A stretch of DNA of 64,000 bases from an uncultured Solirubrobacterales bacterium (lineage in GTDB: Bacteria > Actinomycetota > Thermoleophilia > Solirubrobacterales > 70-9): positions 723,536-787,535 of the forward strand of contig OY969422.1 in NCBI GenBank assembly GCA_963699215.1. The letters are read 5' to 3'. Position 1 is the first letter of the stretch. Every line of letters begins with the position of its first letter. The position numbers were made by a program, and so were the translations under genes. The notes beneath the pieces were generated by a model that worked only from the letters and a program-made list of their open reading frames with translations, ran no database searches and was not told the origin of the DNA. Shown here piece after piece: positions 3,377-61,976 of the stretch.

Positions 3377-6300
3377 ATGGCGCAAACGGCGACCCTGCAG
3401 ATCCAGATGCCCGAGATGGGGGAGTCCGTTACCGAGGGCATCGTCCTCGAGTGGCATGTCGCCGAGGGAGATTTCGTCAACGAGGGCGACACGGTGGTCG
3501 AGGTCTCGACCGACAAGGTCGACGCCGAGGTGCCGGCGCCGGCCGACGGGGTCATCACGAAGCTGATCGCGCAGGTCGACGACGAGGTGCCTGTCGGCGC
3601 TCCGCTGGCGGAGATGGAGCCCGGTGAGGGAGAGGGCGGGACGGCCGAGGGTTCGGGCGCCTCAGCCGCGGGTCCTGTCGGCGCAGGGGACCGAGACGCC
3701 TCAGCCGCGGGTCCTGTCGCGGAGGAGGGGGGGGCACTGCGGGCGGGCCACGGTCCGTCCTCGACCCCCCCTCCTCCCCGCCACCCACGGGTGGGACGTC
3801 TGAGGGAGCTCCCACCGGGAACGGGGCTGGCAACGGAGTTCGGGCGACTCCCGTCGCTCGGAGGGTCGCTGAAGAGACCGGCGTCGACCTTGGCTCGGTG
3901 AGCGGGAACGGGCCGGGGGGCAAGGTCACCAAGGACGATGTGCTGGCGGCTGCCGACGGGGGCAATGGCGCACTCGCGGCGCCCAGGGCCGGCGAGGCGA
4001 AGCCTTTGCGGGGGCCGGCGGCGATGCTGGCTCAGGCGATGGGCGAGAGCCGGGAGGTTCCCACCGCCACTTCGTTCCGCGAGGTTGCCGTCGACACGCT
4101 CGACGCGAAGCGCAGGGCGCTCAACGGACTGCTCAAGGAGCGCGGGGTGAAGGTCTCCTTCACCCACCTGATCGCCTGGGCGATCGTCCAGGCGGCGAAG
4201 CAGTGGCCGGTGATGACGCGCAGCTTCGAGGAGCGCGACGGCAAGCCGTTCGCGATCGAGAACGGGCCGGTCAACCTCGGCATCGCGGTCGACATCGAGC
4301 GCAAGGACGGCTCGCGCAGCCTGATGGTGCCGGCGATCAAGGGCGCCGACGGGCTCGACTTCGCCGCCTTCCACTCCTACTACGAGGACCTGATCACGAA
4401 GACGCGCGAGAGCAAGCTCACCGCCGACGACTTCCAGGGGACCAACATCTCGCTGACCAACCCGGGTGGGATCGGCACCGTCGCTTCGGTCCCGCGCCTG
4501 ATGAAGGGGCAGAGCGCGATCGTCGCCGCCGGGGCGATCGCCTACCCGCCCGAGTGGGCGCACGCCTCGCCCGAGCGGCTGCGCCAGCTCGGCGTCTCGA
4601 AGACGATGACGCTGACCTCGACCTACGACCACCGGGTGATCCAGGGTGCGGAGTCGGGCGCCTTCCTGCGCCGGATCGAGCAGTTGCTCGAGGGCGAGGA
4701 CGGCTTCTACGAGACGGTCGCCGCCGATCTCGCCGTCGACCCCGGCCCGCTCGCCGCCGCCCACCCCGCCTCCGCCTCGGCGCCGCCGCTCGGCGCCGCC
4801 GCCCCGCCGCCCACCCCGGGCGCGCCCGACGAGGAGCTGCTGAGGGCGGTCCAGGCCGCGACCTCGCTGCTCAAGGGCTACCGCACCCACGGCCACCTCG
4901 CGGCCCGGCTCGACCCGCTCGGGCGGGAGCCCAAGAGCGACCCGGCGATCCAGCCCGAGAACCTCAACCTGACTCCGGAGCTGATGGCCCGCGTCCCGGC
5001 CTCGATCCTGCGGATCGGCGTTCCGGGCGAGACGCTGCTCGACGTGCTGCCGCGGATGCGCGAGGCCTACTGCGGCACGATCGCCTACCAGTTCGAGCAC
5101 CTCTCCTCGCACCAGCAACGGACCTGGCTGCGCGAGATGGTCGAGACCGGCGCCCACCGCCAGCCCCTCACCGACGAGGAGAAACGCCGCCTGCTCCACC
5201 GCCTGATCGACGTCTTCGAGTTCGAGCGCTTCATCGAGAAGGCGTACCTGGGACAGAAGATCTTCTCGATCGAGGGTCTCGACACGATCGTGCCGATGCT
5301 CGACGAGCTGGTCACCCTCGCCGGGCGGGCGGGCGCCGAGGAGGTCGTCTTCGGCATGGCGCACCGCGGCCGCCTCAGCGTCCTCGCCCACAACCTCGGG
5401 CGATCGGTCGAGTCGATTCTGGCCGAGTTCGAGGGCTCGAAGCAGATCGAGCAGGTGAAGGCGGTCGCGGCCATACCCCATGGCGGCACCGGCGACGTCA
5501 AGTACCACTACGGCCACCAGGGGATCTACGAGACCAGCGAGGGCGAGAAGATCGCCGTCCGCCTCTACCCCAACCCGAGCCACCTCGAGTTCGTCGACCC
5601 GGTGGTCGAGGGGGCGACTCGCTTCCTCCAGTCGAGAATCGACGGGGCGAAGCTCGAGCACGAGCCGAAGTGCGCGGTGCCGGTGCTGCTGCACGGCGAC
5701 GCGGCCTTCCCCGGCCAGGGGGTGGTCGCCGAGACGCTCAACCTGCAGGCGCTGCGCGGCTACACCACGGGCGGCACGATCCACGTCATCCAGGACAACC
5801 AGGTGGGCTTCACCACCGACCCCGAGGACGCGCGCTCGACCCCGTATGCGGCCGACATGGCGAAGGGGTTCAACATCCCGATCGTCCACGTCAACGCCGA
5901 CGACGTCGAGGCCTGCTCCTCGGCGATCCGCCTGGCGATGGCCTTCCGCGAGCGCTGGGGCCGCGACATCGTCATCGACGTGATCGGCTACCGCCGCTAC
6001 GGCCACAACGAGACCGACGAGCCCGCCTACACCCAACCCGCGATCGCGGCCAAGATCAAGGCCCACCCGCCGGTCTCCGAGATCTACGCCGAGAAGCTGA
6101 TCGGGGAGGGGACGATCGCCAGCGAGGACGTCGAGCGGGCGCGTACCGAGCGCCACGACGAGATGTCGGCGGCGCTCAAGGACCTGCGCAAGAAGATGGA
6201 GCTGGGCGAGTACGAAGACCCCACCGTGACCACCTCGAGCACGGGCGAACTCGACCGCAGCGCCAGCCCGCCGGTCGAGACCGCCGTCGCGGCGGAGAAG

Positions 6301-7446
6301 CTGAGCGAGCTCAACGAAGCCCTGCAGGAGGTGCCGGAGAGCTTCACGATCCACCGCAAGCTGCGCAAGCCGCTCGGCAACCGGGGCGATGCCCTGGCCG
6401 AGGGCGGGATCGAGTTCGGCCACGCCGAGGCGCTCGCCTTCGCCTCTCTGCTCACCGAGGGTGTCCACATCCGCCTCACCGGGCAGGACACCGAGCGCGG
6501 CACCTTCTCCCACCGTCACCTGGTCCTGCACGACGAGAAGACCGGCCTGCCCTACTGCCCGATGCAGAACCTCGCCGGCTCGACCGCCCCTTTCGAGCTC
6601 TACAACAGCCCACTCTCCGAGATCGCCTGCCTCGGCTTCGAGTACGGCTACTCGGCGGCGACGCCAAACGCGCTTGTCCTCTGGGAGGCGCAGTTCGGCG
6701 ACTTCGCCAACGCCGGCCAGGTGATCGTCGACAGCTTCATCGTCTCCGGCGAGGCCAAGTGGGGACAGACCAGCCGCCTCACCCTGCTGCTGCCGCACGG
6801 CTACGAGGGCTCCGGCCCGGAGCACTCCAGTGCCCGCATCGAGCGCTTCCTGGCGCTGGCGGCGGAGGGCAACATCCGCATCGCCAACCCGAGCACCGCC
6901 GCCCAGTACTTCCACCTGCTGCGCCGCCAGGCGCTGATCCGCAAGCCGCGGCCGATGATCGTCTTCACCCCGAAGGGATTGCTACGGCTCGGCCGCGCCT
7001 CGGCGACGGTCGACGAACTGACCAATGGCCAGTTCCACTTCATCCTCGACGACCCGGCCGCCGCCGAGCGACGCGAGAAGGTCGAGCGGCTGGTGCTCTG
7101 CACCGGCAAGGTCTTCTGGGACATCGACGCCAGCGAACGGCGTCAGGCGGCCGAGAACGTGGCGATCGCCCGGGTCGAGCTGCTCTACCCCTTCGCCAAG
7201 GAACAGCTGAGCGAGCTGATCGCCTCCTACCCGAACCTGAAGGAGATCGTCTGGGCGCAGGAGGAGCCGCGCAACATGGGCTGCTGGAAGGTGATGTCGC
7301 GCCGCCTCCCCGACCTGATGCCGGAGGGCGTCGAGCTCGGCTACGTCGGCCGCCCGACCCGGGCCAGCCCGGGCGAGGGGTACTCGGTCGCGCACGCGCG
7401 GGAGCAGGAGCGAATCGTGCTCACCGCTCTGACCCCCGGTGCCTGA
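3377..7446 (+). CDS. odhA: Multifunctional 2-oxoglutarate dehydrogenase, OdhA/Kgd-like, with lipoyl, E3-binding, E2 succinyltransferase and E1o domains; one frame break in the linker as assembled
   Basis: ORF 3377..3901 carries a lipoyl domain ([14 protein letters not shown]). Frame 1 is open from 3628 and encodes a PSBD ([32 protein letters not shown]), an E2 catalytic core ([11 protein letters not shown]) and a TPP-dependent E1o ([18 protein letters not shown]). One added nucleotide near 3727-3771 joins the two frames into 1356 codons. Confidence 0.85.
3721..3777. repeat. Palindromic element inside the odhA inter-domain linker
   Basis: GGAGGA followed by 8 G (3721-3734) faces 7 C followed by TCCTCC (3765-3777), with about 30 nt between. 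It is preceded by a 21-nt direct repeat, CCTCAGCCGCGGGTCCTGTCG, at 3660-3680 and 3699-3719. Confidence 0.6.
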
Positions 7447-11604: not shown

Positions 11605-11737
11605 CTCAGGCCGCAAGCTAGCACCCAGACAGCCGACAGGAATTTGGGATGAAAGTGCGAAAGGCCACAAAATGTTGGTTTTTTGTAAGCATCCGCCCGG
11701 GCAATCGTCTACACTGCCCGCCGTTCCGAACAACCGA

Positions 11738-11870
11738 AACGCCGAATCCCGCAAGCCAGGAGGCGCAGCGGGAACGGGGGAACCACGTTTTCGGGGCTAA
11801 CCCGCTCGACATAGGGCGGGGGCGCAGGCTCCTTTTCGCGCTAGCCCGACAGCTAACCCCGTAGGCCGAC
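11738..11870 (+). promoter_or_regulatory. c-di-AMP riboswitch (ydaO/yuaA class) in the 5' leader of the NlpC/P60 gene
   Basis: Blocks characteristic of the class are visible: GCCGAATCC, ACGGGGGAACCAC, CGGGGCTAACCC, TAGGGCG and GCCCGACAGCTAACCCCGTAGGCC. They are followed by the SD GAAGGAG and a TTG start at 11884. The boundaries are approximate. Confidence 0.75.
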
Positions 11871-11883
11871 GAAGGAGATCGGT

Positions 11884-14769: not shown

Positions 14770-15657
14770 ATGGAGGCTGAAGCAGCCGTGAGCAAGAGGT
14801 CGGCGGGCCACAGGCTCGCCGACCTCTTCCACGGCCGCCCCCGCCTGCAGGTCGGCACGCTCCTGGCCGGGCCGGTCGGCTGGCTGGTCGTCGGCTACCT
14901 GGGCTCCCTCGCGGTCCTGCTGGTCGCGGCCTTCTGGACCGTCGACCCTCTCTCCGGCGAAGTCGCGCGGGGATTCAGCCTCGAAAACTTCGAAACGCTC
15001 TTCGACGAACCGGTCTACCGCGACATCGCCTGGCGGACGATCCTGATCGCCGCCCTCGTCACCGTCACCGATGCCGTCCTCGCCTTCCCGATCGCCTTCT
15101 ACATGGCGAAGCTGGCAAGCCGGCGCGGCAAGGCGATCCTGATCGTCGCGGTGCTGCTGCCGCTCTGGTCGAGCTACCTGGTCAAGGTCTACGCCTGGCG
15201 GACGATGCTCTCCGCCGACGGCGTGCTCAACTGGGCGCTGGAGCCGTTCGGGCTGCACGGCCCCGGCTTCGGCAACACCGCCGTCTGGCTGGTGATGAGC
15301 TACCTCTGGCTGCCGTACATGATCCTGCCGATCTACGCCGGGCTGGAGCGCATCCCCAACTCGCTGATCAGCGCCTCCGAGGATCTCGGCGCCTCGCCCT
15401 TCACCACCTTCCGTCGGGTGATCCTGCCGCTCGCCTTCCCCGCGGTGGTCGCCGGCTCGATCTTCACCTTCGCCCTCACCCTCGGCGACTACATCACGCC
15501 GCGCCTGGTCTCCAACAACCAGTTCATCGGCAACGTCATCTTCAACAACATCGTCAACAACCTGCCGCTTGCATCGGCCTTCGCGCTGGTCCCGATCGTG
15601 GTGATGATCGCCTACCTGCTGGTCGCCAGACGCCTGGGCGCCTTCGAGCACATCTAG
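14770..15657 (+). CDS. ABC transporter permease (PotB-like)
   Basis: Multi-TM ORF with a binding-protein-dependent transport permease signature region (EDLGASPFTTFRRVILP). Confidence 0.85.
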   Translation: MEAEAAVSKRSAGHRLADLFHGRPRLQVGTLLAGPVGWLVVGYLGSLAVLLVAAFWTVDPLSGEVARGFSLENFETLFDEPVYRDIAWRTILIAALVTVTDAVLAFPIAFYMAKLASRRGKAILIVAVLLPLWSSYLVKVYAWRTMLSADGVLNWALEPFGLHGPGFGNTAVWLVMSYLWLPYMILPIYAGLERIPNSLISASEDLGASPFTTFRRVILPLAFPAVVAGSIFTFALTLGDYITPRLVSNNQFIGNVIFNNIVNNLPLASAFALVPIVVMIAYLLVARRLGAFEHI

Positions 15658-22000: not shown

Positions 22001-22046
22001 TGGAGGCCGCTTCAACCGGCGTCGGGCGGTTCCTCCCCACGAATGA

Positions 22047-22078
22047 ACGTTTGTGCCCCCTATAGGGGGCACAAACGT
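22047..22078. repeat. Perfect 32-nt palindrome ACGTTTGTGCCCCCTA|TAGGGGGCACAAACGT; terminator-like
   Basis: 16 perfectly paired positions, immediately downstream of the mutase gene (stop at 22092). A related copy lies at 1293-1325. Confidence 0.7.
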
Positions 22079-22091
22079 CCATCGTCCGGGG

Positions 22092-29521: not shown

Positions 29522-32461
29522 ATGCCTGTCCTAGCCGACTCCCAAGAGCGCGCGATCGGGCACCGCTCCGGACCGCTCCTGCTGACCGGCGAGGCGGGGA
29601 CCGGCAAGACCGAGGTCCTGGCGCAGCGCTTCGAGCGACTGGTCGCAGAGGGGACCGCGCCGGAGCGGATCCTCGTCCTGGCGTCGTCGCAAGCCACCGC
29701 GCAGCGGCTGCGCGAACGGGTCGACGTGCTCCTCGACCGCCCCCTGGAAGAGCTCTGGGTGGGAACCTGGGAGAAGCAGTGCGAGCGGCTTCTGCGCGAG
29801 CACTCGACCGCCGCCGGCCTCGATCCGTTCTTCGCGGTCCTCGGTCCGGCGGAGCGCCTGGCGCTGCTGCTCGACCGTATCGACGACCTGCCCCTGCGCG
29901 GCCATGAGATCCGCGGCAATCCGGCGGGCCTGCTTGCCCGCCTGCTCGAGCGGACCGACGAGGTCAAGGCCGGCTCGGACCCACCCGACCCCGAGCTGGC
30001 CGAGCTGATCGCCGCCCACGACCGCATCCTCGCCGCCACCTGCAGCCTCGACCGCGCCGACGTCTACCTGGCCCTGAGCAAGCTCTTCGACGAGGCCCCC
30101 GACGTTCGCCTTCGGGTCGCTTCTCGCTTCGAGTACCTGATGGTCGACGAGCTGGAGGACACGACCGCTGCTCAACGGGCGATCCTCGTGGCGCTGTCCC
30201 AGGACAACCCGAATCAGCTGTACGCGCTGGGCACAGGTGAGGGGTTGGGGGCGTCCAGCTGGGCGCTGGGTTTTTCGCCAGGTGGGGATGCCTCACACGT
30301 GGAGCCGGCGGGGCGAAAAACAGGACGCCGCGCCCAGCCGGACACCCCCAACCCCTCACCTGTGCCCACGGTCGAACTTACCCGCCAGTTCCGGCAGCCT
30401 GAGACGAAGTTCTGGAGATGTACGAACGAGCGGGCCCAGGCACAGGCGGTTGCGCGGGAAGCCGAGCATCTTGTGGCGGCGGGAACGGCCCCCGAAGAGA
30501 TATGCGTGCTGGTGGACGACCCCACGCGTGGCGGGCCCGTGGCTGCCGCGATGGAAGAGCGGGGCATCCCGTTCCATATGTCTGGCCCGGCGGCGCTGTT
30601 CCAGCGACCGGAGGTCCGGGATGCGATCGCGTGGCTGCGCGTTCTTGCCGACCCGGGCGACTCCGCGGCGGCAGCACGCGCGCTGACCCGCCCCCCGGTC
30701 GAGCTGCGCTCGGCTGACTTGGCGCGGCTGACGACGATCTCGCGGCGGCGCAAGCTCGACCTGGTGTCGGCCTGCGAGGCGGCGCTGGAGAGCCCCCAGA
30801 TATCTCCCGAGGCGCGCGAGCGGATCCAGTCCTTCCTCAAGCTCTACGGAACGGCGTCGGCGGTGCTGGAGGAACGCCGCGCCGACGTCTTCGTGCGACG
30901 GCTGATCGAGGCGGTGGGGTTGCGCCGGCAGCGGCTCTTCGCCGCCCAGCCCGAGGTGGCGGAGCGGCTGCTCGGACTGTCGCGCCTGGCCGAGCTCGCG
31001 GCTGCCTGGGCGCGACGCGAACCCAACGGCTCGACGCGCGATTTCGTCCGCCATCTCACCGCCGTCGCCGACGCCGGGGTTGAGCCGGCCGACGTGGCCG
31101 AGCCGCCGGCGCGCGCGGCGGTGCAGGGACACGTGCGCGAGGCGATCAAGGGAATGGAGTTCGAGCACGTCTTCTTGTTGGGGATGGAGCGCGACGAGGG
31201 AGCTGAGCGGATCGGTCGCCCGGCTCGGCTGGGCCTCGTCCTCTCCCGGGTGGAGCGGGGCGACGAAGGCGAGAGCCGCGCCTCGGAGCTCTACGCCGCG
31301 GCGTTGTCGGAGGCGGACGCCGACGAGGAACCCCACGCCGAGGAGCTGTTCGGCCCGGCCGAGGGGCTGCACGCGACCTACCGCCTGCTGCGCGAGGAGG
31401 TGCTGGAGGCGTCTTGGAAAGCGGGCCGGGAGCTGTCGGAGCCGCGGCTGGACACCGCTGTCGACGTCAACCGCGCGATCGCCCGCTACCTGGAGCTGCT
31501 GAAGCTGGCGGCCCTCGCCCAGCGGCCCGGTGACGAGGCGACCGCGGAGGCGATCGACGCGATCAACGGGCTGCTGCGCCAGGTCGCGACGCCCGAGCAG
31601 CAGGCCGAGCTCGACGCCTCCTCGCTCGACTCCTACCTGCTCGGCTCCGAGCGGGAGCGCGAGGGGCGCCAGCGGCTGATCGCGGCGCGCCAGGAGCCCT
31701 CGCTGGAGGCCTTCCTGCCGCGCCGCGGCGACGGCTCGCTCAGCCTCTCCGCCTCCGACCTCGACCTCTATCTGACCTGCCCGCTGAAGTACAAGTTCGC
31801 GCGCGTCTTCTCCATCCCCCAGGAGCCGACGATCAACCAGCGCTTCGGCATCCTCATCCACAACGTGCTGGAGCGTTTCCACAAAGAAGATGAGGGCGAG
31901 GGCGAGGAAGACGGGCTGCGGCGCCTGATGTCGTTGTTCGAGACGGGCTGGCGGCGCAGCGGCTTCGGCAACAGCGACGACGAGCTGCAGTTCCGCGACC
32001 GGGCGCGGAAGGCGATGCGCCTCTACTGGGAGCGGGAGCGCGACTCCGACGGCGAGCCGGTCTGGCTGGAGCGGAAGTTCGACATCCGGATCGGCGAGCA
32101 CCACGTGCGCGGCCGGGTCGACCGGGTCGACCGCCTGCCGGGCGGGGGCCACGAGCTGATCGACTACAAGACGGGCGAGCGCAAGAGCGAAGCCCAGCTG
32201 GAGAGCGACCTGCAGCTGGCGCTCTACCGGCTCGCCGCTCGCGAGGCCTGGGAGCTAGAGGCCGATACCGGCAGCTACTACTACGTGCTGGACGCCGAGA
32301 AGGTCGCCGCGCCGAGCAAGCCCGACGACGCCGAGCGGGTCGAGCGCACCGTGCTGCAGGTCGGCGAGGGCGTCCTCGGCCAGGACTTCGAGCCACGCCC
32401 CTCGCCAACCGTCTGCGGCTGGTGCGACTACCGCCTGATCTGCCCAGCGGCAGAGAGCTAA
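29522..32461 (+). CDS. UvrD-like helicase fused to a RecB/AddB-type PD-(D/E)XK nuclease with a Cys cluster (AdnA/AddB-like)
   Basis: Walker A GEAGTGKT and DExx MVDELED. C-terminal nuclease motifs LTCPLKYKF, ELIDYKTG, QLALYRLA and CGWCDYRLICP. It carries a 45-codon in-frame palindromic insertion. Confidence 0.8.
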   Translation: MPVLADSQERAIGHRSGPLLLTGEAGTGKTEVLAQRFERLVAEGTAPERILVLASSQATAQRLRERVDVLLDRPLEELWVGTWEKQCERLLREHSTAAGLDPFFAVLGPAERLALLLDRIDDLPLRGHEIRGNPAGLLARLLERTDEVKAGSDPPDPELAELIAAHDRILAATCSLDRADVYLALSKLFDEAPDVRLRVASRFEYLMVDELEDTTAAQRAILVALSQDNPNQLYALGTGEGLGASSWALGFSPGGDASHVEPAGRKTGRRAQPDTPNPSPVPTVELTRQFRQPETKFWRCTNERAQAQAVAREAEHLVAAGTAPEEICVLVDDPTRGGPVAAAMEERGIPFHMSGPAALFQRPEVRDAIAWLRVLADPGDSAAAARALTRPPVELRSADLARLTTISRRRKLDLVSACEAALESPQISPEARERIQSFLKLYGTASAVLEERRADVFVRRLIEAVGLRRQRLFAAQPEVAERLLGLSRLAELAAAWARREPNGSTRDFVRHLTAVADAGVEPADVAEPPARAAVQGHVREAIKGMEFEHVFLLGMERDEGAERIGRPARLGLVLSRVERGDEGESRASELYAAALSEADADEEPHAEELFGPAEGLHATYRLLREEVLEASWKAGRELSEPRLDTAVDVNRAIARYLELLKLAALAQRPGDEATAEAIDAINGLLRQVATPEQQAELDASSLDSYLLGSEREREGRQRLIAARQEPSLEAFLPRRGDGSLSLSASDLDLYLTCPLKYKFARVFSIPQEPTINQRFGILIHNVLERFHKEDEGEGEEDGLRRLMSLFETGWRRSGFGNSDDELQFRDRARKAMRLYWERERDSDGEPVWLERKFDIRIGEHHVRGRVDRVDRLPGGGHELIDYKTGERKSEAQLESDLQLALYRLAAREAWELEADTGSYYYVLDAEKVAAPSKPDDAERVERTVLQVGEGVLGQDFEPRPSPTVCGWCDYRLICPAAES
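30229..30367. repeat. 139-bp imperfect palindromic element embedded in frame in the helicase gene
   Basis: GGGCACAGGTGAGGGGTTGGGGG...CCCCCAACCCCTCACCTGTGCCC, with nested inner pairings (CTGGGCGC/GCGCCCAG and GTTTTTCGCC/GGCGAAAAAC). It is translated as TGEGLGASSWALGFSPGGDASHVEPAGRKTGRRAQPDTPNPSPVP. Confidence 0.8.
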
Positions 32462-32467
32462 GGGTCA

Positions 32468-32622
32468 GCAGGAAGCCCGGTTGTCCTCCGGGTGAATTGA
32501 TGTCGCACGCGCGCTCCGCGCGCTTAGCGACGGTGTTTGTGCGCGGCTAACGCCGCACAGAAAACAGATTGCATATCGCGGCCTTCGGCCACATTCCCCC
32601 GGAGGACAACCGGGCTTCCTGC
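32468..32622. repeat. Structured palindromic element, family A copy 1 (candidate ncRNA or structure-dependent repeat)
   Basis: A 25-bp perfect closing stem GCAGGAAGCCCGGTTGTCCTCCGGG / CCCCGGAGGACAACCGGGCTTCCTGC surrounds a core of about 104 nt with three internal hairpins. Confidence 0.75.
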
Positions 32623-32690
32623 CAACGCTCAGCTGCAACTCCTCTCAAGCTCAAGCAAAGCGAGTTGAGCTGACCCCACTCTGGCTTGAT

Positions 32691-32840
32691 GAAGAAGCGG
32701 CGATCCACTCTCGCGGGAATGTCGCGAAGCGGCGATATGCAATCTGGTGATTGCGCGGCTTCAGCCGCGCACCAACTCAGTCGCTAAGCCCCAAAGGGGC
32801 GTGCGACATCAATTCCCGCGAGAGTGGACCGCCGCTTCTC
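32691..32840. repeat. Structured palindromic element, family A copy 2, inverted relative to copy 1
   Basis: Closing stem GAAGAAGCGGCGATCCACTCTCGCGGGAAT / ATTCCCGCGAGAGTGGACCGCCGCTTCTC. The reverse complement of the core aligns block by block with 32493-32596. Confidence 0.75.
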
Positions 32841-32859
32841 TACAACAGGCGATCGTGTG

Positions 32860-33732
32860 TCAGTTCGACTCGCCGCGGCGCTGCTGCAGGAACTGCTGGA
32901 ACTCGCGGGCGATCGTGTCGGCGGAGGGAAGGTCGCCGCCCTCCTCGCCGAGCTGCTCCACCTGCTCGGCCTCGATCCGCTCGACCAGCTCGGCGATCTC
33001 CGGGTTGGCGGCGACGGCGCGGCCGATCTGCTCCTCGTAGCTGGCCGTTTCCTCCTCCAGCGCGGTGGCGTCGACAGCGATCCCGGTGAGGCCCTCGAGC
33101 CGCCGCAGCAGTGCCAGGGCCGCCTTCGGGTTGGGAACCGCCGCGACGTAGTGCGGCACCGCCGCCCAGAGCGAGGCCGAGGTGATCCCGATCCTGCGAC
33201 AGCAGTCGTGAACGACGCCGACGATCCCGGTCGGGCCTTCGTAGTTGGAGCGCTGCAAATCCAGCTCCTCGACCAGCTTCTCGTCCGAGGCGAGGCCGGT
33301 GATCGGCACCGGCAGGGTGTGGGAGACCTCCGCCACGAGCGCACCCAGGGTCACGACCATCTCGACCCCGAGCGCGTCGGCCGCGGTCGCAACCGTCTCC
33401 GAGAAGGTGCGCCAGCGCAGGTTGGGCTCGGTCCCGTCGAAGAGCACGAGGTCGCGGCCGGCCCCGGGGATGCGGATCGCGATCAGATCGTTCTGCGGCC
33501 ACTCGATCTTGCGGGTCTGGCCTTCGGAGAGGACGATCGTCGGCCGGGTCGCCTGGAAGTCGAAGTAGTCCTCCGGATCTACATTCGCCACCGGCTCGGC
33601 GTCGAAGCTGTCGGCCACCGCGCCCAGCGCGGCCGAAGCGGCGCCGGCGGCGTCGTTCCAGCCCCTGAAGGCGCAAACCAGAACCGGAGAGCGCAGCTGC
33701 GGCACCTCGGAGTGCCAGGTGAGCGAATCCAC
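32860..33732 (-). CDS. PAC2-family (proteasome assembly chaperone-like) protein
   Basis: 290-aa ORF with a GTG start; MDSLTWHSEVPQLRSPVLVCAFRGWNDAAGAASAA is typical of actinobacterial PAC2 proteins. Confidence 0.7.
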   Translation of the reverse strand: MDSLTWHSEVPQLRSPVLVCAFRGWNDAAGAASAALGAVADSFDAEPVANVDPEDYFDFQATRPTIVLSEGQTRKIEWPQNDLIAIRIPGAGRDLVLFDGTEPNLRWRTFSETVATAADALGVEMVVTLGALVAEVSHTLPVPITGLASDEKLVEELDLQRSNYEGPTGIVGVVHDCCRRIGITSASLWAAVPHYVAAVPNPKAALALLRRLEGLTGIAVDATALEEETASYEEQIGRAVAANPEIAELVERIEAEQVEQLGEEGGDLPSADTIAREFQQFLQQRRGESN

Positions 33733-42257: not shown

Positions 42258-42434
42258 ATGCCGTTCGTCCACATCCACTGGTTCGAGGGCCGCAGCGACG
42301 AGCAGAAGGCCGAGATCGCGAAGCGGATCGAAGCGGCGCTGGTCGAGGTGGCCGGCGCCGCCCCCGAGCACTGCTGGGTGAAGTTCTCCGACTCGCCGAA
42401 AACCGACTTCATCATCGGCGAGCGGGCTGAGTAG
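42258..42434 (+). CDS. 4-oxalocrotonate tautomerase family protein (58 aa)
   Basis: Too short for the ORF track. MPFVHIHWFEGRSDEQKAEIAKRIEAALVEVAG, with the catalytic Pro at position 2. Confidence 0.65.
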   Translation: MPFVHIHWFEGRSDEQKAEIAKRIEAALVEVAGAAPEHCWVKFSDSPKTDFIIGERAE

Positions 42435-42533
42435 GGGCCGGGTGCCCCTCCCCGGAGGCCGTTGCGCAGCTGATCGTTGGTGCAGGGTTGGAGTGTGGTT
42501 CCCGGAGCCTCCGGGGGAGGGGCACCCGGCCCC
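42434..42533. repeat. Structured palindromic element, family B copy 1
   Basis: A 25-bp stem GGGGCCGGGTGCCCCTCCCCGGAGG / CCTCCGGGGGAGGGGCACCCGGCCCC around a 49-nt core beginning CCGTTGCGCAGCTGATCG. It fills the spacer between the convergent tautomerase and ileS genes. Confidence 0.8.
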
Positions 42534-42536
42534 GTT

Positions 42537-45500
42537 TCAGGCGCGGGTGATGATGACGTGGAGGTCGCGGCCGTCGAGCTTGACGGTGGCGCCATCCGCG
42601 GCGTCGTAGGCGACCGAGGTCGCGAGGACCTCGCCGGCTACGTAGGACTCGTGGGCGCGGGCGGCCCCGAGCAGCTCCTCGTCGCCGCCGAGGCCGAGCT
42701 CGATCCGGTCGGTGATCTCCAGGCCCGCCTCTTTGCGCGCGTTCTGGACGGCGTGGACGATCTCGCGGGCGAACCCCTCGCGGCGCAGCTCGTCGTCGAG
42801 CTCTAGCTGCAGGGCGACGGCGTGTCCGGCCTCCGCCTCGACCTCGTAGCCCTCCAGCGGCTGCAGGGAGAGAGTCAGCTCGTCGGCGGCAGAGGGTGTG
42901 CTCGTCGCCGTCGACGTTGATGCCGACCTCGCCACCATCGGCCATCACCGCGGCCACGTGGACTGGGTCGAGCGCCTCGACCGCGGCGGCGACCTGCGGC
43001 ATCCGCTTGCCGAAGCGGGGGCCGAGCGAGCGGTAGTTGGGCTTGACCGCGTAGCTGACCAGCTCTGCCTCCTCGGTGACGAAGTCGAGCTCCTTGACGT
43101 TGAGCTCGGCCTTGACCAGCTCGGCGCGGGCCGAGATCGCCGCGCGCTCGGCGTCGTTGGCGACGATCACGGCGCGGCGCAGCGGCTGGCGCACCTTGGC
43201 CTTCGCCTGGGCGCGGGCGGCGCGGCCGAGCTCGACGGTGAGCCGCACCGCCTCCATCGCCGCCTCCAGCTCGGGGTCGGCAAGCGCCGGGTCGGGCTCG
43301 GGGAAGTCGCGCAGGTGGACCGAGTCGGGCAGCTCGCCGAGGTCCTCCCCCTCGCCCCCGGCGAGGTTGAGGTGGATCTCGTCGGCGAGGAAGGGGGTGA
43401 ACGGCGCGAGCAGCGCCGCCGTCTCCAGCAGGCAGTGGCGCAGGGTCGCGAAGGCGGCCCGGTCGCCCTCCCAGAAGCGGCGGCGCGAGAGGCGCACGTA
43501 CCAGTTCGAGAGCTGCTCGACGAACTCGGCGATCGCGCGGCCGGCGGCGGTGCAGTCGAAGTCGTCCATGTGCTCGCGCACCGTCGCCACCGTCGCCTGC
43601 AGCCGCGAGAGCGCCCAGCGGTCGAGGTCGTCGCTCGGCTCCGGCGCGCCGGTGAAATCTCCCGGCGTCGAGGTTCTCGGCGTTCGCGTAGAGGACCCAG
43701 AAGGAGTACGTGTTCCAGAGCGTGAGCAGGAACTGGCGCACCGATTCGCCCACGGTGTCGACCGAGAAGCGGTAGCCCGACCAGGGCTGCTGCGCGGTCA
43801 GGTAGTACCAGCGGAAGGCGTCGGCGCCGTGGGCGGCGATCACGTCCCAGGGCTCGACCACGTTGCCCTTGCTCTTCGACATCTTCTGCCCCTCGGGGTC
43901 GAGGATCAGGCCGAGGCAGACGCAGTTGCGGTAGCTGGAGGTGTCGAAGAGCAGGGTCGACTCGGCGAGCAGCGTGTAGAACCAGCCGCGGGTCTGGTCG
44001 ATCGCCTCGCAGATGAAGTCGGCGGGGAAGCGCTCCTCGAACAGCTCCTCGTTCTCGAACGGGTAGTGGAACTGGGCGAAGGGCATCGCGCCGCTGTCGT
44101 ACCAGGTGTCGATCACCGACTCGACCCGCCGCATCTCGCCGCCGCACCGCTCGCAGTCGAGCGTGACCTCGTCGATGTAGGGGCGGTGCAGGTCGGCGGG
44201 GACCTCGCCTCTGGCGCGCTCGCGCAGCTCGGCGACCGAGCCGGCGCAGAAGCGGCCGTCGCAGGCCTCGCTCGTGCACTCCCAGATCGGCAGCGGCGTC
44301 CCCCAGTAGCGGTCGCGCGAGAGCGCCCAGTCGACGTTGTTCTCCAGCCACTTGCCGAAGCGGCCGTGCTTGATGTGCTCGGGGTGCCAGCCGATCTCCT
44401 CGTTGTTGGCGAGCAGCTGGTCGCGCGCCCGCGAGGTGGCGACGTACCAGCTCGACTTGGCGTAGTAGAGGAGCGGCGTGCCGCAGCGCCAGCAGTGCGG
44501 GTAGGCGTGCTCGTAGACCTGCTCGCGGAAGAGCAGGCCGCGCCCGGCGAGGTCGTCGATCAACGCCCGGGTCACCTCCGGGTCCTTGACGAACCTGCCC
44601 TCGAAGCCGACCACCCGCCTGTCGAAGTGCCCGTCCGGTTCGACCGGGTTGTAGAGGGTGCCGTGCGAGGTGGGGTCGAAGATCCCGTTCTCGGCCGCGA
44701 CCGAGTAGTCGTCCTCGCCGAAGGCCGGAGCGATGTGGACGAGGCCGGTCCCGTCCTCGGTGGTGACGAACTCGCCGGCAACTACGGGGAAACCTCCAGC
44801 CGGCCGATCATCGAGCGCGAAGATCGGGCCTTCGTAGCGGCGGTCGACCAGCTCGCTGCCGGGGAAGCGGTCGGTTATCTCGATGCCCTCGCCGAGCACC
44901 TTCTCGACCAGCGGCTCGGCGAGGATCAGGATCTCGTCTTCGACCTTCGCCTTGACGTAGGTGACCTCCGGCGCAACCGCGACCGCCTCGTTGCCGGGCA
45001 GGGTCCACGGCGTCGTCGTCCAGACCAGCAGCGACTCGCCCGCCGCGGAGCCATCCTCCGCCAGCAACGGGAAGCGCACGTATATGGAGGGGTCCTCGAC
45101 GTCCTGGTAGCCGAGCGCCACCTCGTGCGAGGAGAGCGCGGTGCCGCAGCGCGGGCAGTAGGGGACGACCTTGTGGCCCTCGTAGAGCCGCTCGTCGTCC
45201 CAGAGCTTGCGCAGCGACCACCAGACCGACTCGATGTACTCGTCGTCGAGGGTGACGTAGGGATCGTCGAGGTCGATCCAGAAGCCGATCCGCTCGGTCA
45301 GCCGGTTCCAGTCCTCGACGTACTCGAAGACCGACTCGCGGCAGCGGCGGTTGAACTCGGCGATCCCGTACTCCTCGATCTCCTGCTTGGAGGAGATGCC
45401 GAGCTCCTTCTCCACCTCGAGCTCGACCGGCAGCCCGTGACAGTCCCAGCCGGCCTTGCGCGGCACCCGGTAGCCGCACATCGTGCGGTAGCGGGGGTAG

Positions 45501-52408: not shown

Positions 52409-53719
<1,311 letters not shown>

Positions 53720-53722
<3 letters not shown>

Positions 53723-53824
53723 GGATCAGGAGTCCCTCCCGCGGAGGCTCAAGGGACCACGCCTGAACCCTCCGCCCGCGATCAGCTGCGCAACGGTCTC
53801 CGCGGGAGGGACTCCTGATCCTTA
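53720..53824. repeat. Structured palindromic element, family B copy 2 (opposite orientation)
   Basis: TAAGGATCAGGAGTCCCTCCCGCGGAG / CTCCGCGGGAGGGACTCCTGATCCTTA. The arms contain the stop codons of both convergent genes. The reverse complement of the core matches the 42459-42507 core. Confidence 0.8.
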
Positions 53825-55267
53825 CCCCTGAAGCGTTATGAAGCGCTCCTCCGTTAGCTCTAGGACTGCGAAAGCGGGACCCTCGCGGGTGTTGCCGGAG
53901 TCCTTGACGCCGCCGTAGGGCATCTGGTCGGCGCGGAAGGTCGGGACCTCGTTGATCAGGACGCCGCCAAACTCGAGCGTCGCGGCCGCCTCTAATCCGC
54001 GACCCATGTCGCGGGTGAAGACGCCGGCCTGAAGGCCGAACTTGGAGTCGTTCGCCAGCCGCAGCGCCTCGCCGAAGTCCGCGTAGCGATCGATCGTCGC
54101 CACCGGGCCGAAGACCTCCTCGCACCAGACCTTGGCCTCGCGCGGTGGGGCGCCGAGCAGGGTCGGAGCGAGGCAGCGTCCCTCGTCGACCAGCTCGCCC
54201 CCGGTCAGCAGCTCGGCCCCGCCGGCGACCGCCTCGTCGATCCACTGCTTGACCCGGTCGCGGTCACTGGGCGAGATCAGCGGCCCGACGTCGGTCTCGG
54301 GGTCGAGCGGGTCGCCGACCCGAAGGCTCCCGGTGTTGGCGACGAGGCGCTCGGTGAAGGCGTCGGCGACGTCCTCGTGGACGAGGATCCGCTGGATCGA
54401 GATGCAGCTCTGCCCCGCGTGGGAGAAGGCGTGCAGCTTGGCTTTGTCGGCCGCGATCTCCCAGTCGCCATCGGAGTGGACGATCAGCGGCGCGTTGGAG
54501 CCCAGCTCGAGGTTGACCTTCTTGTGCGGGACGCGGCTGCGGATCCCCCAGCCGACCTTGGCCGAGCCGGTGAAGCTGAGCGCCCCGGTCAGCTCGTGCT
54601 CGACGATCGCGTTGCCGACCTCCGAGCCCGGGCCCGGGACGACGCTGAGCCAGCCCTGCGGCAGGCCCGCCTCGACCAGGATCGCGGCCAGCTTCAGCGC
54701 TGAGATCGGCGTCTGCCCGGCTGGCTTGAGGACGACCGCGTTGCCGGCGGCAATCGCCGGGCCGAGCTTGTGCGCAACCAGATTGAGCGGGAAGTTGAAG
54801 GGGCTGATCGCGCCGACGACGCCGAAGGGGACGCGCAACATCACGCCGAGCTTGCCGGCGCCGGCCGCCGATGCCTCCATCGGCACCGTGCCGCCGCTCA
54901 GCTTGCGCGCCTCGACCGCGGAGAAGGTGAGCGTGTCGACGCAGCGGGCGGCCTCCGCCTGCGCGGTCTTCAGCGGCTTGCCCGCCTCAGCGGCGATCGT
55001 CAGCGCCAGATCGTCGAGCCGCTCAGCGGTCAGCTCGGCGGCCTGGTCGAGCACCGCTGCCCGCTCGTGCTGAGGGAAGTCGCCCGACTCGAAGGCGGCA
55101 CGGGCAGCAATCGCACAGCGGTCCACGAGCCCTGCGTCGCCCTGCGCGACCCGGCCGACGACGGTGCCGTCATACGGGCTCTTTACCTCAGCCCACTCGC
55201 CCGTCCCGGTCCACTCGCCAGCGGCGAGGAGCTCGTGGTCGACCGCTTGCACCGTCTGCGTCGCCAT
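53822..55267 (-). CDS. NAD(P)-dependent aldehyde dehydrogenase
   Basis: 481 aa; FTGSAKVG, ELGSNAP and the catalytic GQSCISIQR. Confidence 0.9.
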   Translation of the reverse strand: MATQTVQAVDHELLAAGEWTGTGEWAEVKSPYDGTVVGRVAQGDAGLVDRCAIAARAAFESGDFPQHERAAVLDQAAELTAERLDDLALTIAAEAGKPLKTAQAEAARCVDTLTFSAVEARKLSGGTVPMEASAAGAGKLGVMLRVPFGVVGAISPFNFPLNLVAHKLGPAIAAGNAVVLKPAGQTPISALKLAAILVEAGLPQGWLSVVPGPGSEVGNAIVEHELTGALSFTGSAKVGWGIRSRVPHKKVNLELGSNAPLIVHSDGDWEIAADKAKLHAFSHAGQSCISIQRILVHEDVADAFTERLVANTGSLRVGDPLDPETDVGPLISPSDRDRVKQWIDEAVAGGAELLTGGELVDEGRCLAPTLLGAPPREAKVWCEEVFGPVATIDRYADFGEALRLANDSKFGLQAGVFTRDMGRGLEAAATLEFGGVLINEVPTFRADQMPYGGVKDSGNTREGPAFAVLELTEERFITLQG

Positions 55268-55282
55268 TCAGCTAAGCGTAGA

Positions 55283-55411
55283 GGAGGGCAGGGGTTGCCT
55301 CGACGATGCCTCGCGAAGCGGCCCCGGCAAGGTGATTCCAGCCGCGAAGCGGCACCAGATTCCACCGCCGAAGGCGGTGGTGGGCACTCGTCGAGGCGAC
55401 CCCTGCCCTCC
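55283..55411. repeat. Structured palindromic element related to family A
   Basis: A 24-bp stem GGAGGGCAGGGGTTGCCTCGACGA / TCGTCGAGGCGACCCCTGCCCTCC with one T-G pair. The core holds three hairpins with GAA loops and shares TCGCGAAGCGGC, GGTGATT and GCGGCACCA with 32721-32775. Confidence 0.7.
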
Positions 55412-55418
55412 CCAATGC

Positions 55419-56408
55419 TCAGCCGTCGGCGTAAGGCTGAATCGGAATGCCGTGGTCGGTCTCGCGCATCCCCAGCTCATAGGCCGCGCCGGCGGCGAGG
55501 GAGAGCCGCAGCGGCGGCACGGCGGGTCGTTCGACCGTCAGCTCGAGATCGGAGACAGAGCAGTTGACCGTGTTGTGCTCGGGCCCCTTGGGGTCGGCGT
55601 AGATCCAGCCGACGAAGTCCTTCCGTGGCGCCGAGACCTTGCCGCGGACGACGATTTCCTTGCCCGGGAGGACGAAGGAGCACTCGCCGGCGGACTCGAC
55701 GATCGTCGCCTTGCGGATCTGGCCGAACCCACCCAGACGGTGGGCCTTGCCTTCGAGCATCAGCATCCCGGACGGGATCCAGGGGGTCTTCCAGGGACCC
55801 AGCTTGATCCGGGCGGCGCCAGCGTCGAAGTAGGTGCCGGGGGAGCCGTCGAAGCCGGTGCCCTCCAGCCAGACCCAGCGCTCGGCGTGCTCGGTGCCCC
55901 AGTTGTGGCCGATCATCCCTGGCCAGCCCTCGAGCTCGATCGTCTCGCCGCCGATCTCGAGACGGCCGTCGAAGCGCGCGTTCGGGAAGGGGGCGACGAA
56001 CTTGGTTTTCGGCAGCCGCGTCTCGTAGAGGCGGTCCGATGGCAGGTACTTGCAGGGCTCGGCGTCGCCGGAGAAGCTCAGCTCCCACGACGCTTGGAGC
56101 GTGTCGGTCGCGATCCCTCCGCTGGCCCTGCCGGGGCCGATCTCCGCGCCTGCGACGCGGATCCACGATCCGGCCGGCGTCGAGAGCTCGGCGGCCGGCA
56201 CGGTCACCTTGGTTGCCCGCGGCCCACCCGCCTCGCGGTCGAAGAGGACGAACCAGATCGAGGCTTTCGGCTCGGCCCCGGGCCGCTTGTGGACCGTGTG
56301 CCGGATCCAGACTCCCCGCCCGCCCTCGGGCTGGCAGGCCTTGATGTAGAAGCTCTCGTAGTGGCCCGCCCTGGGGGCGACCGCCGGGAACCGCGCTCCC
56401 TGGTCCAT
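55419..56408 (-). CDS. Hypothetical 329-aa protein (beta-rich; no family recognised with confidence)
   Basis: Clean ORF with protein-like composition. I see no motif I can name. Confidence 0.55.
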   Translation of the reverse strand: MDQGARFPAVAPRAGHYESFYIKACQPEGGRGVWIRHTVHKRPGAEPKASIWFVLFDREAGGPRATKVTVPAAELSTPAGSWIRVAGAEIGPGRASGGIATDTLQASWELSFSGDAEPCKYLPSDRLYETRLPKTKFVAPFPNARFDGRLEIGGETIELEGWPGMIGHNWGTEHAERWVWLEGTGFDGSPGTYFDAGAARIKLGPWKTPWIPSGMLMLEGKAHRLGGFGQIRKATIVESAGECSFVLPGKEIVVRGKVSAPRKDFVGWIYADPKGPEHNTVNCSVSDLELTVERPAVPPLRLSLAAGAAYELGMRETDHGIPIQPYADG

Positions 56409-61911: not shown

Positions 61912-61976
61912 GGCACGGGGTTGCAGCGACGCCGGGGCGGGGCCCAGAGCCCGCCCCGGCGTCGCTGCAGGTGCCC
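61911..61976. repeat. Long near-perfect hairpin between convergent genes, with arms related to those of 55283-55411 and 30229-30367
   Basis: A 20-bp perfect stem TGCAGCGACGCCGGGGCGGG / CCCGCCCCGGCGTCGCTGCA, with an outer GGGCAC/GTGCCC pair and a short loop. The 5' arm GGGCACGGGGTTGCAGCGACG resembles GGGCAGGGGTTGCCTCGACG. Confidence 0.7.

Follow-up and report, generated by a model that had tools for sequence, protein, structure and literature searches.

Proteobacteria and Firmicutes are well known to carry structured intergenic repeats, which, to our knowledge, have hardly been described in Actinomycetota and not at all in Thermoleophilia. In Escherichia coli, bacterial interspersed mosaic elements (BIMEs) bind gyrase, IHF and DNA polymerase I, and some of the longer ERIC and Correia repeats have a proposed or demonstrated part in the stability or processing of mRNA. 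The I-shaped or bidirectional intrinsic terminators of Actinobacteria are G+C-rich, lack a U-tail and lie after stop codons, often between convergent genes. Repetitive extragenic palindromes (REPs) and BIMEs show a bias to gene 3′ ends and to convergent junctions (PMC3184786). Here we analyze a 64,000-nt stretch of DNA from an uncultured Solirubrobacterales bacterium (contig OY969422.1, positions 723,536 to 787,535 of the forward strand; 'the window'), in which the entire 398-bp spacer between the stop codons of a helicase gene and a convergent PAC2 gene consists of one paired module, formed by two inverted structured elements, A and B. We find that A and B are members of a lineage-specific structured intergenic repeat family, carried by many uncultured soil Solirubrobacterales (Actinomycetota), and that together they exemplify a head-to-head pair module that recurs at gene 3′ ends with a REP/BIME-like distribution. 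Our literature search returned no description of such repeats in Solirubrobacterales.

A family of paired structured repeats at gene 3′ ends

The module and its flanking genes are laid out as follows. Coordinates are positions in the 64-kb window, and L-numbers denote extracted relative loci.

29522–32461, + strand: upstream flanking gene, a UvrD-type helicase with a PD-(D/E)XK nuclease domain, 979 amino acids (from the open reading frame (ORF) list and Pfam on the L001 ortholog)
32468–32622, + strand: element A, defined by arm pairing, with a covariance model match at 32482–32608 (+) of 129.9 bits
32468–32497, 32494–32596 and 32593–32622, + strand: 5′ arm, core (GAAT...ATTC, 103 nt) and 3′ arm of A
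32523–32531, + strand: invariant block CTTAGCGAC of A, defined by column conservation; insertion site of an IS110-family element in copies from a related genome
32623–32692: linker between A and B, with AGCT at 32631, 32648 and 32668 and a small hairpin at 32648–32671
32693–32839, core on the − strand: element B, defined by arm pairing, with a covariance model match at 32705–32827 (−) of 130.1 bits
32812–32839, 32717–32815 and 32693–32720, in element orientation: 5′ arm, core (99 nt) and 3′ arm of B, with CTTAGCGAC at 32780–32788
32860–33732, − strand: downstream flanking gene, a PAC2 family protein of 290 amino acids, convergent with the helicase (from the ORF list and Pfam PAC2 on the L069 ortholog)

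The two elements have a common core of ~100 nt, and each is closed by a 28–30-bp stem with a sequence of its own. When B is reverse-complemented, its blocks align with those of A one by one; the intervening segments differ and still form hairpins. Within the window, GAATTGATGTCGCACGC and CAGATTGCATATCGC have exactly two occurrences each, one in A on the + strand and one in B on the − strand. As RNA, both elements fold far better than shuffled sequences (z = −12.2 for A and −9.3 for B), and the whole spacer folded as DNA (z = −14.4) resolves into two separate clamped units and the hairpin at 32648–32671. Because the blocks align, the shared blocks occur only in A and B, and the folds far exceed those of shuffles, the observation in an earlier note, made from the letters of the window alone, is correct: two inverted copies with a common core are present, with inner hairpins that differ between A and B yet stay paired, and with a small hairpin between them. 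This linker hairpin is also kept at the helicase/PAC2 junction of four orthologous loci (L043, L078, L118 and L022).

The pairing of A extends more weakly to 32456–32634 (42-nt arms, 88% complementary), whereas the 28-nt arms of B are 96% complementary. The helicase, whose L001 ortholog matches the Pfam families UvrD-helicase, UvrD_C and PDDEXK_1, ends in a TAA stop codon (32459–32461) 6 nt 5′ of the 5′ arm of A, and 20 nt separate the PAC2 stop codon from the outer end of B. The earlier note could match the core to no RNA family, and a search of the spacer against Rfam 15 likewise gave no matches at gathering thresholds and only chance-level matches below them (the match to MIR6457, for instance, reaches 41 bits where the threshold is 140). 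We also considered a short conserved ORF within the core, starting at an ATG in GATGTCGC, but rejected it on reading the sequences, as the variable hairpin shifts both frame and length between copies.

An exact-pattern scan (TTGATGTCGCACGC, a gap of 6–30 and CTTAGCGAC; one genome per species) found at least 119 loci, and every titled one among the matches listed belongs to a Solirubrobacterales or Actinomycetota metagenome-assembled genome. All family counts, alignments and controls below rest on copies extracted from the matches listed (~120 loci). These gave 153 copies with a closing stem, which fall by upstream flank into 49 clusters, that is, 49 distinct gene-junction sides, the largest containing 17, 12, 11 and 11 orthologous copies. 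Units are 150–180 nt long, with a core of 95–108 nt and a stem of 30 bp on average (range 13–44) in which 95.4% of positions are Watson–Crick pairs. The core runs in a fixed order from GAAUUGAUG through a GUCGC/GCGAC helix around a variable hairpin, a GCGCGG/CCGCGC hairpin, a UGCA-containing segment and a small UUC-loop hairpin to ACAUUC. With 148 copies as input, a covariance model picks out A and B alone in the window (130 bits each); their reverse strands score 27–36 bits. The same exact-pattern scan gave 0 matches in viral contigs, and a phage origin was rejected on that account. In one copy (L107, + copy near 1780, reverse strand read), an insertion of ~110 nt lies inside the GCGCGG/CCGCGC hairpin, so the cores themselves are struck by further small insertions.

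With genes called from long open frames with high third-position G+C, the distance from stop codon to 5′ arm has a median of 12.5 nt, and the units lie 5–25 nt after stops. Both neighbors could be called for 76 copies: 64 are convergent, 12 are tandem (8 tandem-sense and 4 tandem-antisense) and 0 are divergent. The convergent copies comprise 50 in pairs and 14 solo, and all 4 tandem-antisense copies are the second member of a pair. Adjacent pairs are head-to-head (+,−) in 49 of 50 cases, with a single (+,+) pair and no (−,+) pair; the 5′ side of the core thus faces the nearest gene. We detected no excess of flanking direct repeats, the longest of which match mismatched-flank controls, although old copies could have lost them. 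The idea that a pair represents two differentiated ends, classed by the base before GAAT, was dropped as unconvincing, since mixed pairs are only in mild excess (32 versus 14 + 3).

Linkers within pairs are 24–195 nt long, and their sequence is unconserved between junctions. They are nevertheless rich in one motif: AGCT occurs 154 times against 17.5 expected from composition (9-fold), AAGCTT 24 times against 0.7 (34-fold), and AAGCT is 13.6-fold above the background of the loci. A T never precedes the motif and an A almost never follows it, its spacing is irregular and there is no wider consensus. Arrays of AAGCT/AGCTT are found, for example, in L107 (reverse strand, 1490–1620), L112, L030 and L074, and at 32623–32692 in the window. 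As AAGCTT is palindromic, it reads the same in both convergent transcripts. Seven pairs have a long linker of 354–779 nt, and six of the seven hold a small gene. Accessory genes of this kind lie between pair members in L117 (2381–3152), L061, L063, L071, L047, L019 and L013. One cargo gene encodes a DUF998 membrane protein, by a Pfam match on the orthologous ORF of L013; others, read from their translations and without a Pfam match, appear to encode a DCC-type thiol oxidoreductase-like protein, a cupin-like protein, a VapBC pair and a 145-amino-acid ORF product. In L107, the junction that corresponds to the site of the VapBC-like genes in L117 holds nothing but an AAGCT-rich linker.

Conservation, history and insertion of the units

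When the cores of 148 copies are aligned, identity reaches 97% or more in 53 of 121 columns; among these near-invariant columns are most of CTTAGCGAC and the blocks GAATTGAT, TCGCACGC and ACATTC. RNAalifold predicts 29 pairs, with compensatory changes in 22 of them. Paired cells make up 97.9% of the observed alignment and 79.6% of shuffled ones (0 of 500 shuffles reach the observed value), cells altered on both sides number 732 compared with 223 in shuffles, and the covariation score is 0.447, as against 0.108 for shuffles and 0.05–0.08, at most 0.076, for slid-partner controls. All 12 modeled stem pairs have changed on both sides in 14–86 of the 148 copies, and one-sided (G·U) states are confined to 6 of 4291 cells, or 0–1 copies per stem pair. 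Over full-length stems, G·T plus T·G (55) and C·A plus A·C (59) are equally rare, which suggests that pairing is restored regardless of the type of mismatch. A mutual-information search for extra helices supported none, and a pseudoknot was rejected because the top non-nested pairs merely mirror the subtype structure of the family. The fold, rather than the sequence of the stem, is what selection keeps, together with the invariant unpaired nucleotides. The stems would be better explained by DNA-level correction between arms, or by a constraint acting on both strands, than by the ordinary evolution of an RNA helix. The earlier note had read the pattern of A and B as that of a structured RNA or of a fold-dependent DNA element; further copies and covariation were both found, but with G·U nearly absent the covariation does not look specific to RNA, and a DNA-level hairpin would account for it at least as well as a structured RNA.

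Stem and core evolve at different rates. Over all copies, identity is 49% in the stem and 80% in the core, and, with no excess of flanking direct repeats, this agrees with the earlier description of the elements as the opposite of a classical MITE (miniature inverted-repeat transposable element). Among orthologs of A, identity is 76.9% in the stem, 90.9% in the core and 84–89% in the flanking genes, which indicates that the stem drifts at about the pace of the least constrained sites yet stays paired, while the core is held more tightly than genes. The stem differences between these orthologous copies are fully compensated. Stem alignment scores are 0.325 for copies at the same junction with different core subtypes, 0.132 for copies at different junctions with the same subtype and 0.112 at baseline; stem sequence therefore follows the junction, on top of a loose family consensus, GGGAGCCCGGTnGnCCTCnnGGG before GAAT. 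Because some 150 copies share this consensus, the closing stems of A and B, which do differ in sequence and do stay paired, are not strictly 'unrelated' as had been stated.

The segment before the last hairpin (alignment columns 102–119) occurs in four subtypes: alpha, CAGATTGCATATCGC, which is that of the window; beta, CACGAGTGCAGCGGC; gamma, CGGATTGCATTTCCGC; and delta, CAGATTGCATAGGCC. The two members of a pair have a common subtype in 37 of 50 pairs, compared with 17.2 in shuffles. Subtypes agree in 73% of comparisons (43/59) between different junctions of the same genome, in 51% between orthologous junctions of different genomes and in 29% between unrelated copies. The units are thus mosaics: the core segment goes with the genome and the stem with the junction. 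Either conversion of core segments between dispersed copies or the tracking of a changing trans-acting partner by all copies would produce this pattern.

Comparison of orthologous helicase/PAC2 spacers, which the earlier note had proposed as a check, revealed double, single and empty states. In public records, homologs of the PAC2 protein are labeled Solirubrobacterales. Both units are present in L001, with a spacer of 396 bp, and in L043, L064 and L078. L118 has only A, with B deleted between two GGCGATC repeats but for the outer part of its arm; L022 has only B and the outer part of the arm of A; and in L069, A is truncated and B is split by an insertion sequence (IS). The losses in L118, L022, L014 and L020 are all deletions that leave arm remnants, and a similar internal deletion is also seen at another junction. 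By contrast, L002 and L003 have spacers of 1 bp and 7 bp, with neither element nor remnant. By the identity of their flanking genes, these two empty genomes are nearest to the filled L064, L118 and the window, and closer to them than these are to other filled genomes. This nesting of empty among filled genomes points to one ancient, vertically inherited module, with one clean loss and deletional erosion elsewhere; on the simplest history, the module would be ancestral at this junction. We rejected insertion of a core into the loop of a host terminator hairpin, since the empty sites have no hairpin in their 1-bp or 7-bp spacers, and since the stems share a family consensus that none of the three plain long hairpins in the window resembles. 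Inverted target duplication of one arm was rejected because the empty sites hold no source sequence for either arm.

The IS that splits unit B in L069 belongs to the IS110 family, and a second copy lies in another unit of the same genome.

L069 2686–4174, − strand: IS110-family element of ~1.49 kb
L029 about 4432–7200: second copy of this element

In L069, a + and a − copy flank a 402-amino-acid ORF with DEDD_Tnp_IS110 and Transposase_20 domains. The IS sits within the invariant block of B, at GTCG-CT↓IS↓CT-AAGC on the + strand, or CTTAG↓CGAC in core orientation, with the dinucleotide on both sides. The L029 copy is 97.6–99.8% identical, occupies the identical position and orientation and is in turn disrupted by an IS3-type (rve) element. 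Of about 155 copies, no more than 2 have an IS110 gene nearby, and both of these units are interrupted by the IS. The position of a DEDD transposase between a + and a − copy at two loci had suggested IS110 as the parent of the family; this was rejected because the IS splits one unit in CTTAGCGAC, the other unit being a separate neighbor. As the insertion splits the core at CTTAG↓CGAC, the IS110-family element invaded secondarily, with the core as its landing site, and is not the origin of the units. A full-length IS that would explain the units as decayed MITEs, which the earlier note had named as the finding that would overturn its reading, was therefore found only in the form of an interruption of the core, and no autonomous element with the ends of the family was found among the ~120 loci listed. 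In its 3′ non-coding region, the IS carries UAGCGAC and the complementary GUCGCUA, a 7-mer that spans the insertion point, as well as CCUGCGGCG, a 9-mer from the variable hairpin of the target. These three segments are candidate bridge- or seek-RNA guides, as judged from sequence; guides of such RNAs look like target-matching segments of this kind (PMC11208160, PMC11187229), and REP repeats are established targets of the IS110 family (PMC1525189, PMC11208160).

Comparison with described systems and possible function

The family fails the defining features of REP, MITE, canonical terminator, attC and every Rfam family, and it is most like REP/BIME/REPIN and the long hairpin repeats. Like REPs, BIMEs and REPINs, the units are extragenic, G+C-rich and hairpin-forming, prefer gene 3′ ends and convergent junctions, occur as inverted or alternating units with linkers (here, almost always head-to-head), have a genome-specific sequence type and a long vertical inheritance, and are targeted by IS110-family elements. 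A REP unit, however, is an imperfect palindrome of 20–40 nt with a conserved stem, whereas a unit of 150–180 nt here has a conserved multi-helix core and a variable 30-bp stem; the host is actinobacterial, and no RAYT gene is linked to the family among the ORFs at the copies. We know of no counterpart to the AAGCT-rich linker in REP/BIME/REPIN. The ERIC/IRU, Correia/NEMIS, BOX, RUP and SPRITE repeats are similar in being 100–200 nt long, co-transcribed with their neighbors and able to fold into long hairpins, but they have conserved terminal inverted repeats and mostly target-site duplications, where this family has variable termini and no detectable duplication; they also have no sequence similarity to it. 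MITEs, too, are short, non-coding and multi-copy, with palindromic ends and a presence that varies between relatives. Here, the ends are variable and the interior conserved, there is no target-site duplication, and the sole full-length IS found sits inside a core.

The U-tail-less terminators of Actinobacteria also place a G+C-rich hairpin without a U-tract right after the stop codon. Ordinary terminators have small loops and form no sequence family, whereas here the loop is taken up by a conserved 100-nt core that is found again at dozens of junctions. attC sites have conserved outer sites and a variable center and stand beside an integrase gene in arrays of one orientation; the units reverse this pattern and stand in inverted pairs, and no integrase occurs among the ORFs tested. 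The only families detected among the tested ORFs between or beside copies are IS110, IS3-type, a Mu-type C-terminal domain, DUF998 and PAC2. Finally, the bridge or seek RNA of an IS110 element is encoded inside the IS by the DEDD recombinase gene, whereas the units are instead interrupted by the IS.

From these patterns, we infer that the units act as a co-transcribed 3′-end module, a reading to which we assign a probability of about one half. Each unit would be transcribed as the tail of the gene that it follows, and its stable clamp would serve as a 3′-end barrier that stops or pauses polymerase without a U-tail and blocks 3′-to-5′ exonucleases; under this proposal, such a barrier would insulate two convergent genes from each other. 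The invariant single-stranded blocks of the core would be where a trans-acting factor, co-evolving within each genome, binds, and the AAGCU of the linker, alike on both strands, may provide processing or binding sites on read-through transcripts. The perfect stems would be kept by arm-to-arm correction at the DNA level rather than by the wobble tolerance of RNA, and the invariant core block would be where IS110-family elements land. A bolder proposal, which we put forward tentatively and consider unlikely, is that the family represents a new domesticated structured element with a dedicated protein or RNA partner that recognizes the core and co-evolves with all copies in each genome. Such a partner would explain why a single segment of the core switches in step while stems stay with the junction. 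Small accessory gene cassettes may, in addition, dock at the linker.

Several observations weigh against a role at transcript 3′ ends. The module is dispensable at the helicase/PAC2 junction, given the empty spacers of L002 and L003. The hairpin is not followed by a T-run or U-tract, and a search for canonical terminators found 0 terminator-like sites in 32300–33000. The near-absence of G·U and the equal rarity of G·T and C·A would be unusual in a functional RNA helix. At convergent junctions, an orientation set by transcription and a fixed head-to-head pair are indistinguishable; the informative tandem solo copies number only three, all of them sense, and two independent tandem junctions carry a full pair, the second member of which is antisense to the flanking transcription. 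The linker sequence AG↓CUU does fit RR↓CNU, the preference of mycobacterial RNase E (PMC10641625), but as this comes from a distant class and concerns a 5-mer, it is a lead only.

The main rival to the 3′-end module is a selfish, non-autonomous REPIN-type repeat without host function, moved in trans by an HUH/Y1 single-strand transposase, which we regard as rather unlikely. An enzyme like RAYT or the IS200/IS605 transposases would recognize the DNA hairpin and the invariant single-stranded blocks, and copies would persist at convergent gene ends because insertions there are harmless. Much of the family is as this predicts: it is multi-copy, its Watson–Crick stems show no wobble preference, as in a DNA hairpin, its head-to-head doublets resemble REPINs, and its genome-specific core subtypes recall REP–RAYT co-evolution. 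The lack of target-site duplications is also accommodated, since HUH enzymes make none, and the presence of copies varies among relatives, with accessory genes that lie between pair members at some junctions and are absent from the orthologous junction of another species. However, no HUH/Y1-type transposase was seen beside any copy among the ORFs tested there, and the only transposases at these sites, IS110 and IS3, interrupt copies. The copies are moreover old and orthologous across species, with stems that follow the junction, so that recent movement is not evident, and the invariant blocks in static orthologs are better conserved than neighboring genes, which selection at the level of the element explains poorly unless conversion from active copies is frequent.

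Both a free-standing RNA and a purely DNA-level role are less likely than this selfish repeat. If each unit were the gene of a structured non-coding RNA (a small RNA, a ribonucleoprotein RNA or a ribozyme) with its own transcript and the stem as terminal helix, the invariance of single-stranded nucleotides at junctions alongside covarying helices would be expected, as would the higher score of the covariance model on the sense strand and selection in excess of that on flanking genes. We nevertheless think this improbable: the spacer scan found no promoter-like sites in or beside the units, which begin within 5–25 nt of a stop codon in very short spacers; G·U pairs are almost absent; no Rfam family matches even at a weak score; and several copies with different stems coexist in one genome, while relatives dispense with the module. 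The idea to which we give the least credence is a cis-acting DNA element at convergent gene ends, in which cruciform-prone palindromes and an AAGCT(T) array are bound by a nucleoid protein, a topoisomerase or a recombinase, and in which the linker may be a docking region for small gene cassettes. Symmetric, Watson–Crick-only pairing suits such an element, because both strands count equally, and so do the enrichment of palindromic AAGCTT in the linker, the cargo genes found there at several junctions and the location at sites of transcription-driven supercoiling, a bias shared with REP/BIME (PMC3184786). A purely double-stranded site, however, would have no need of an asymmetric core whose 5′ side always points toward the nearest gene, no binding protein is known, and AAGCT has neither an extended consensus nor regular spacing.

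Whichever of these applies, the anatomy of the family reverses the usual layout of a repeat, with a conserved core and a free-running stem. Its ~150 natural variants of one fold, paired by Watson–Crick rules only, offer a clean case for separating selection on RNA from selection on a DNA hairpin and from arm-to-arm correction. That the core segment tracks the genome while the stem tracks the junction points to a partner that may be found by phylogenetic profiling. If the 3′-end module does set 3′ ends between convergent genes, it would give compact soil actinobacterial genomes a new means of termination and insulation that needs no U-tailed terminators. The insertions in L069 and L029 also provide a case from nature in which an IS110-family element is directed at a conserved structured repeat, which bears on how bridge- or seek-RNA-guided elements choose safe landing sites.

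Other elements in the window

The earlier note had suggested 55283–55411 as a third copy, which is not supported. The region at 55271–55423 is a long-stem element with 36-nt arms (86% complementary), and its outer ends, AGCTAAGCGT..., resemble those of A. Although similar in build, its core is unrelated: blastn detects no core similarity, and 55293–55401 scores 19 bits in the covariance model, compared with 130 for A and B.

A second family of similar build is represented at 42427–42540 and 53698–53846, in opposite orientations, with a different common core (82% identity over 77 nt, CCGTTGCGCAGCTGATCG). Each copy is closed by its own long stem, and the inner stem motif, GCCGGGTGCCCCTCCCCGG, resembles main-family stems by eye. 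The copy at 42427–42540 occupies all of the space from one convergent stop codon to the other. Plain long hairpins occur in the window only at 14794–14828, 22043–22082 and 61922–61969 (arms of 16–20 nt, loops of 3–8 nt), and they are unrelated to the family stems.

Within the helicase ORF, 30228–30368 forms a 141-nt palindrome with 44-nt arms (91% complementary), across which the frame stays open. It corresponds to a variable protein loop: L001 and L002 lack ~26 residues here, and L003 has a different insert. L069, L022 and L078 have related sequences in their helicase genes, and further ones lie at other loci. The only Rfam match above the gathering threshold in the window is a cyclic di-AMP (c-di-AMP) riboswitch (ydaO/yuaA leader, RF00379) at 11730–11882 on the + strand, with a score of 70.4 bits.

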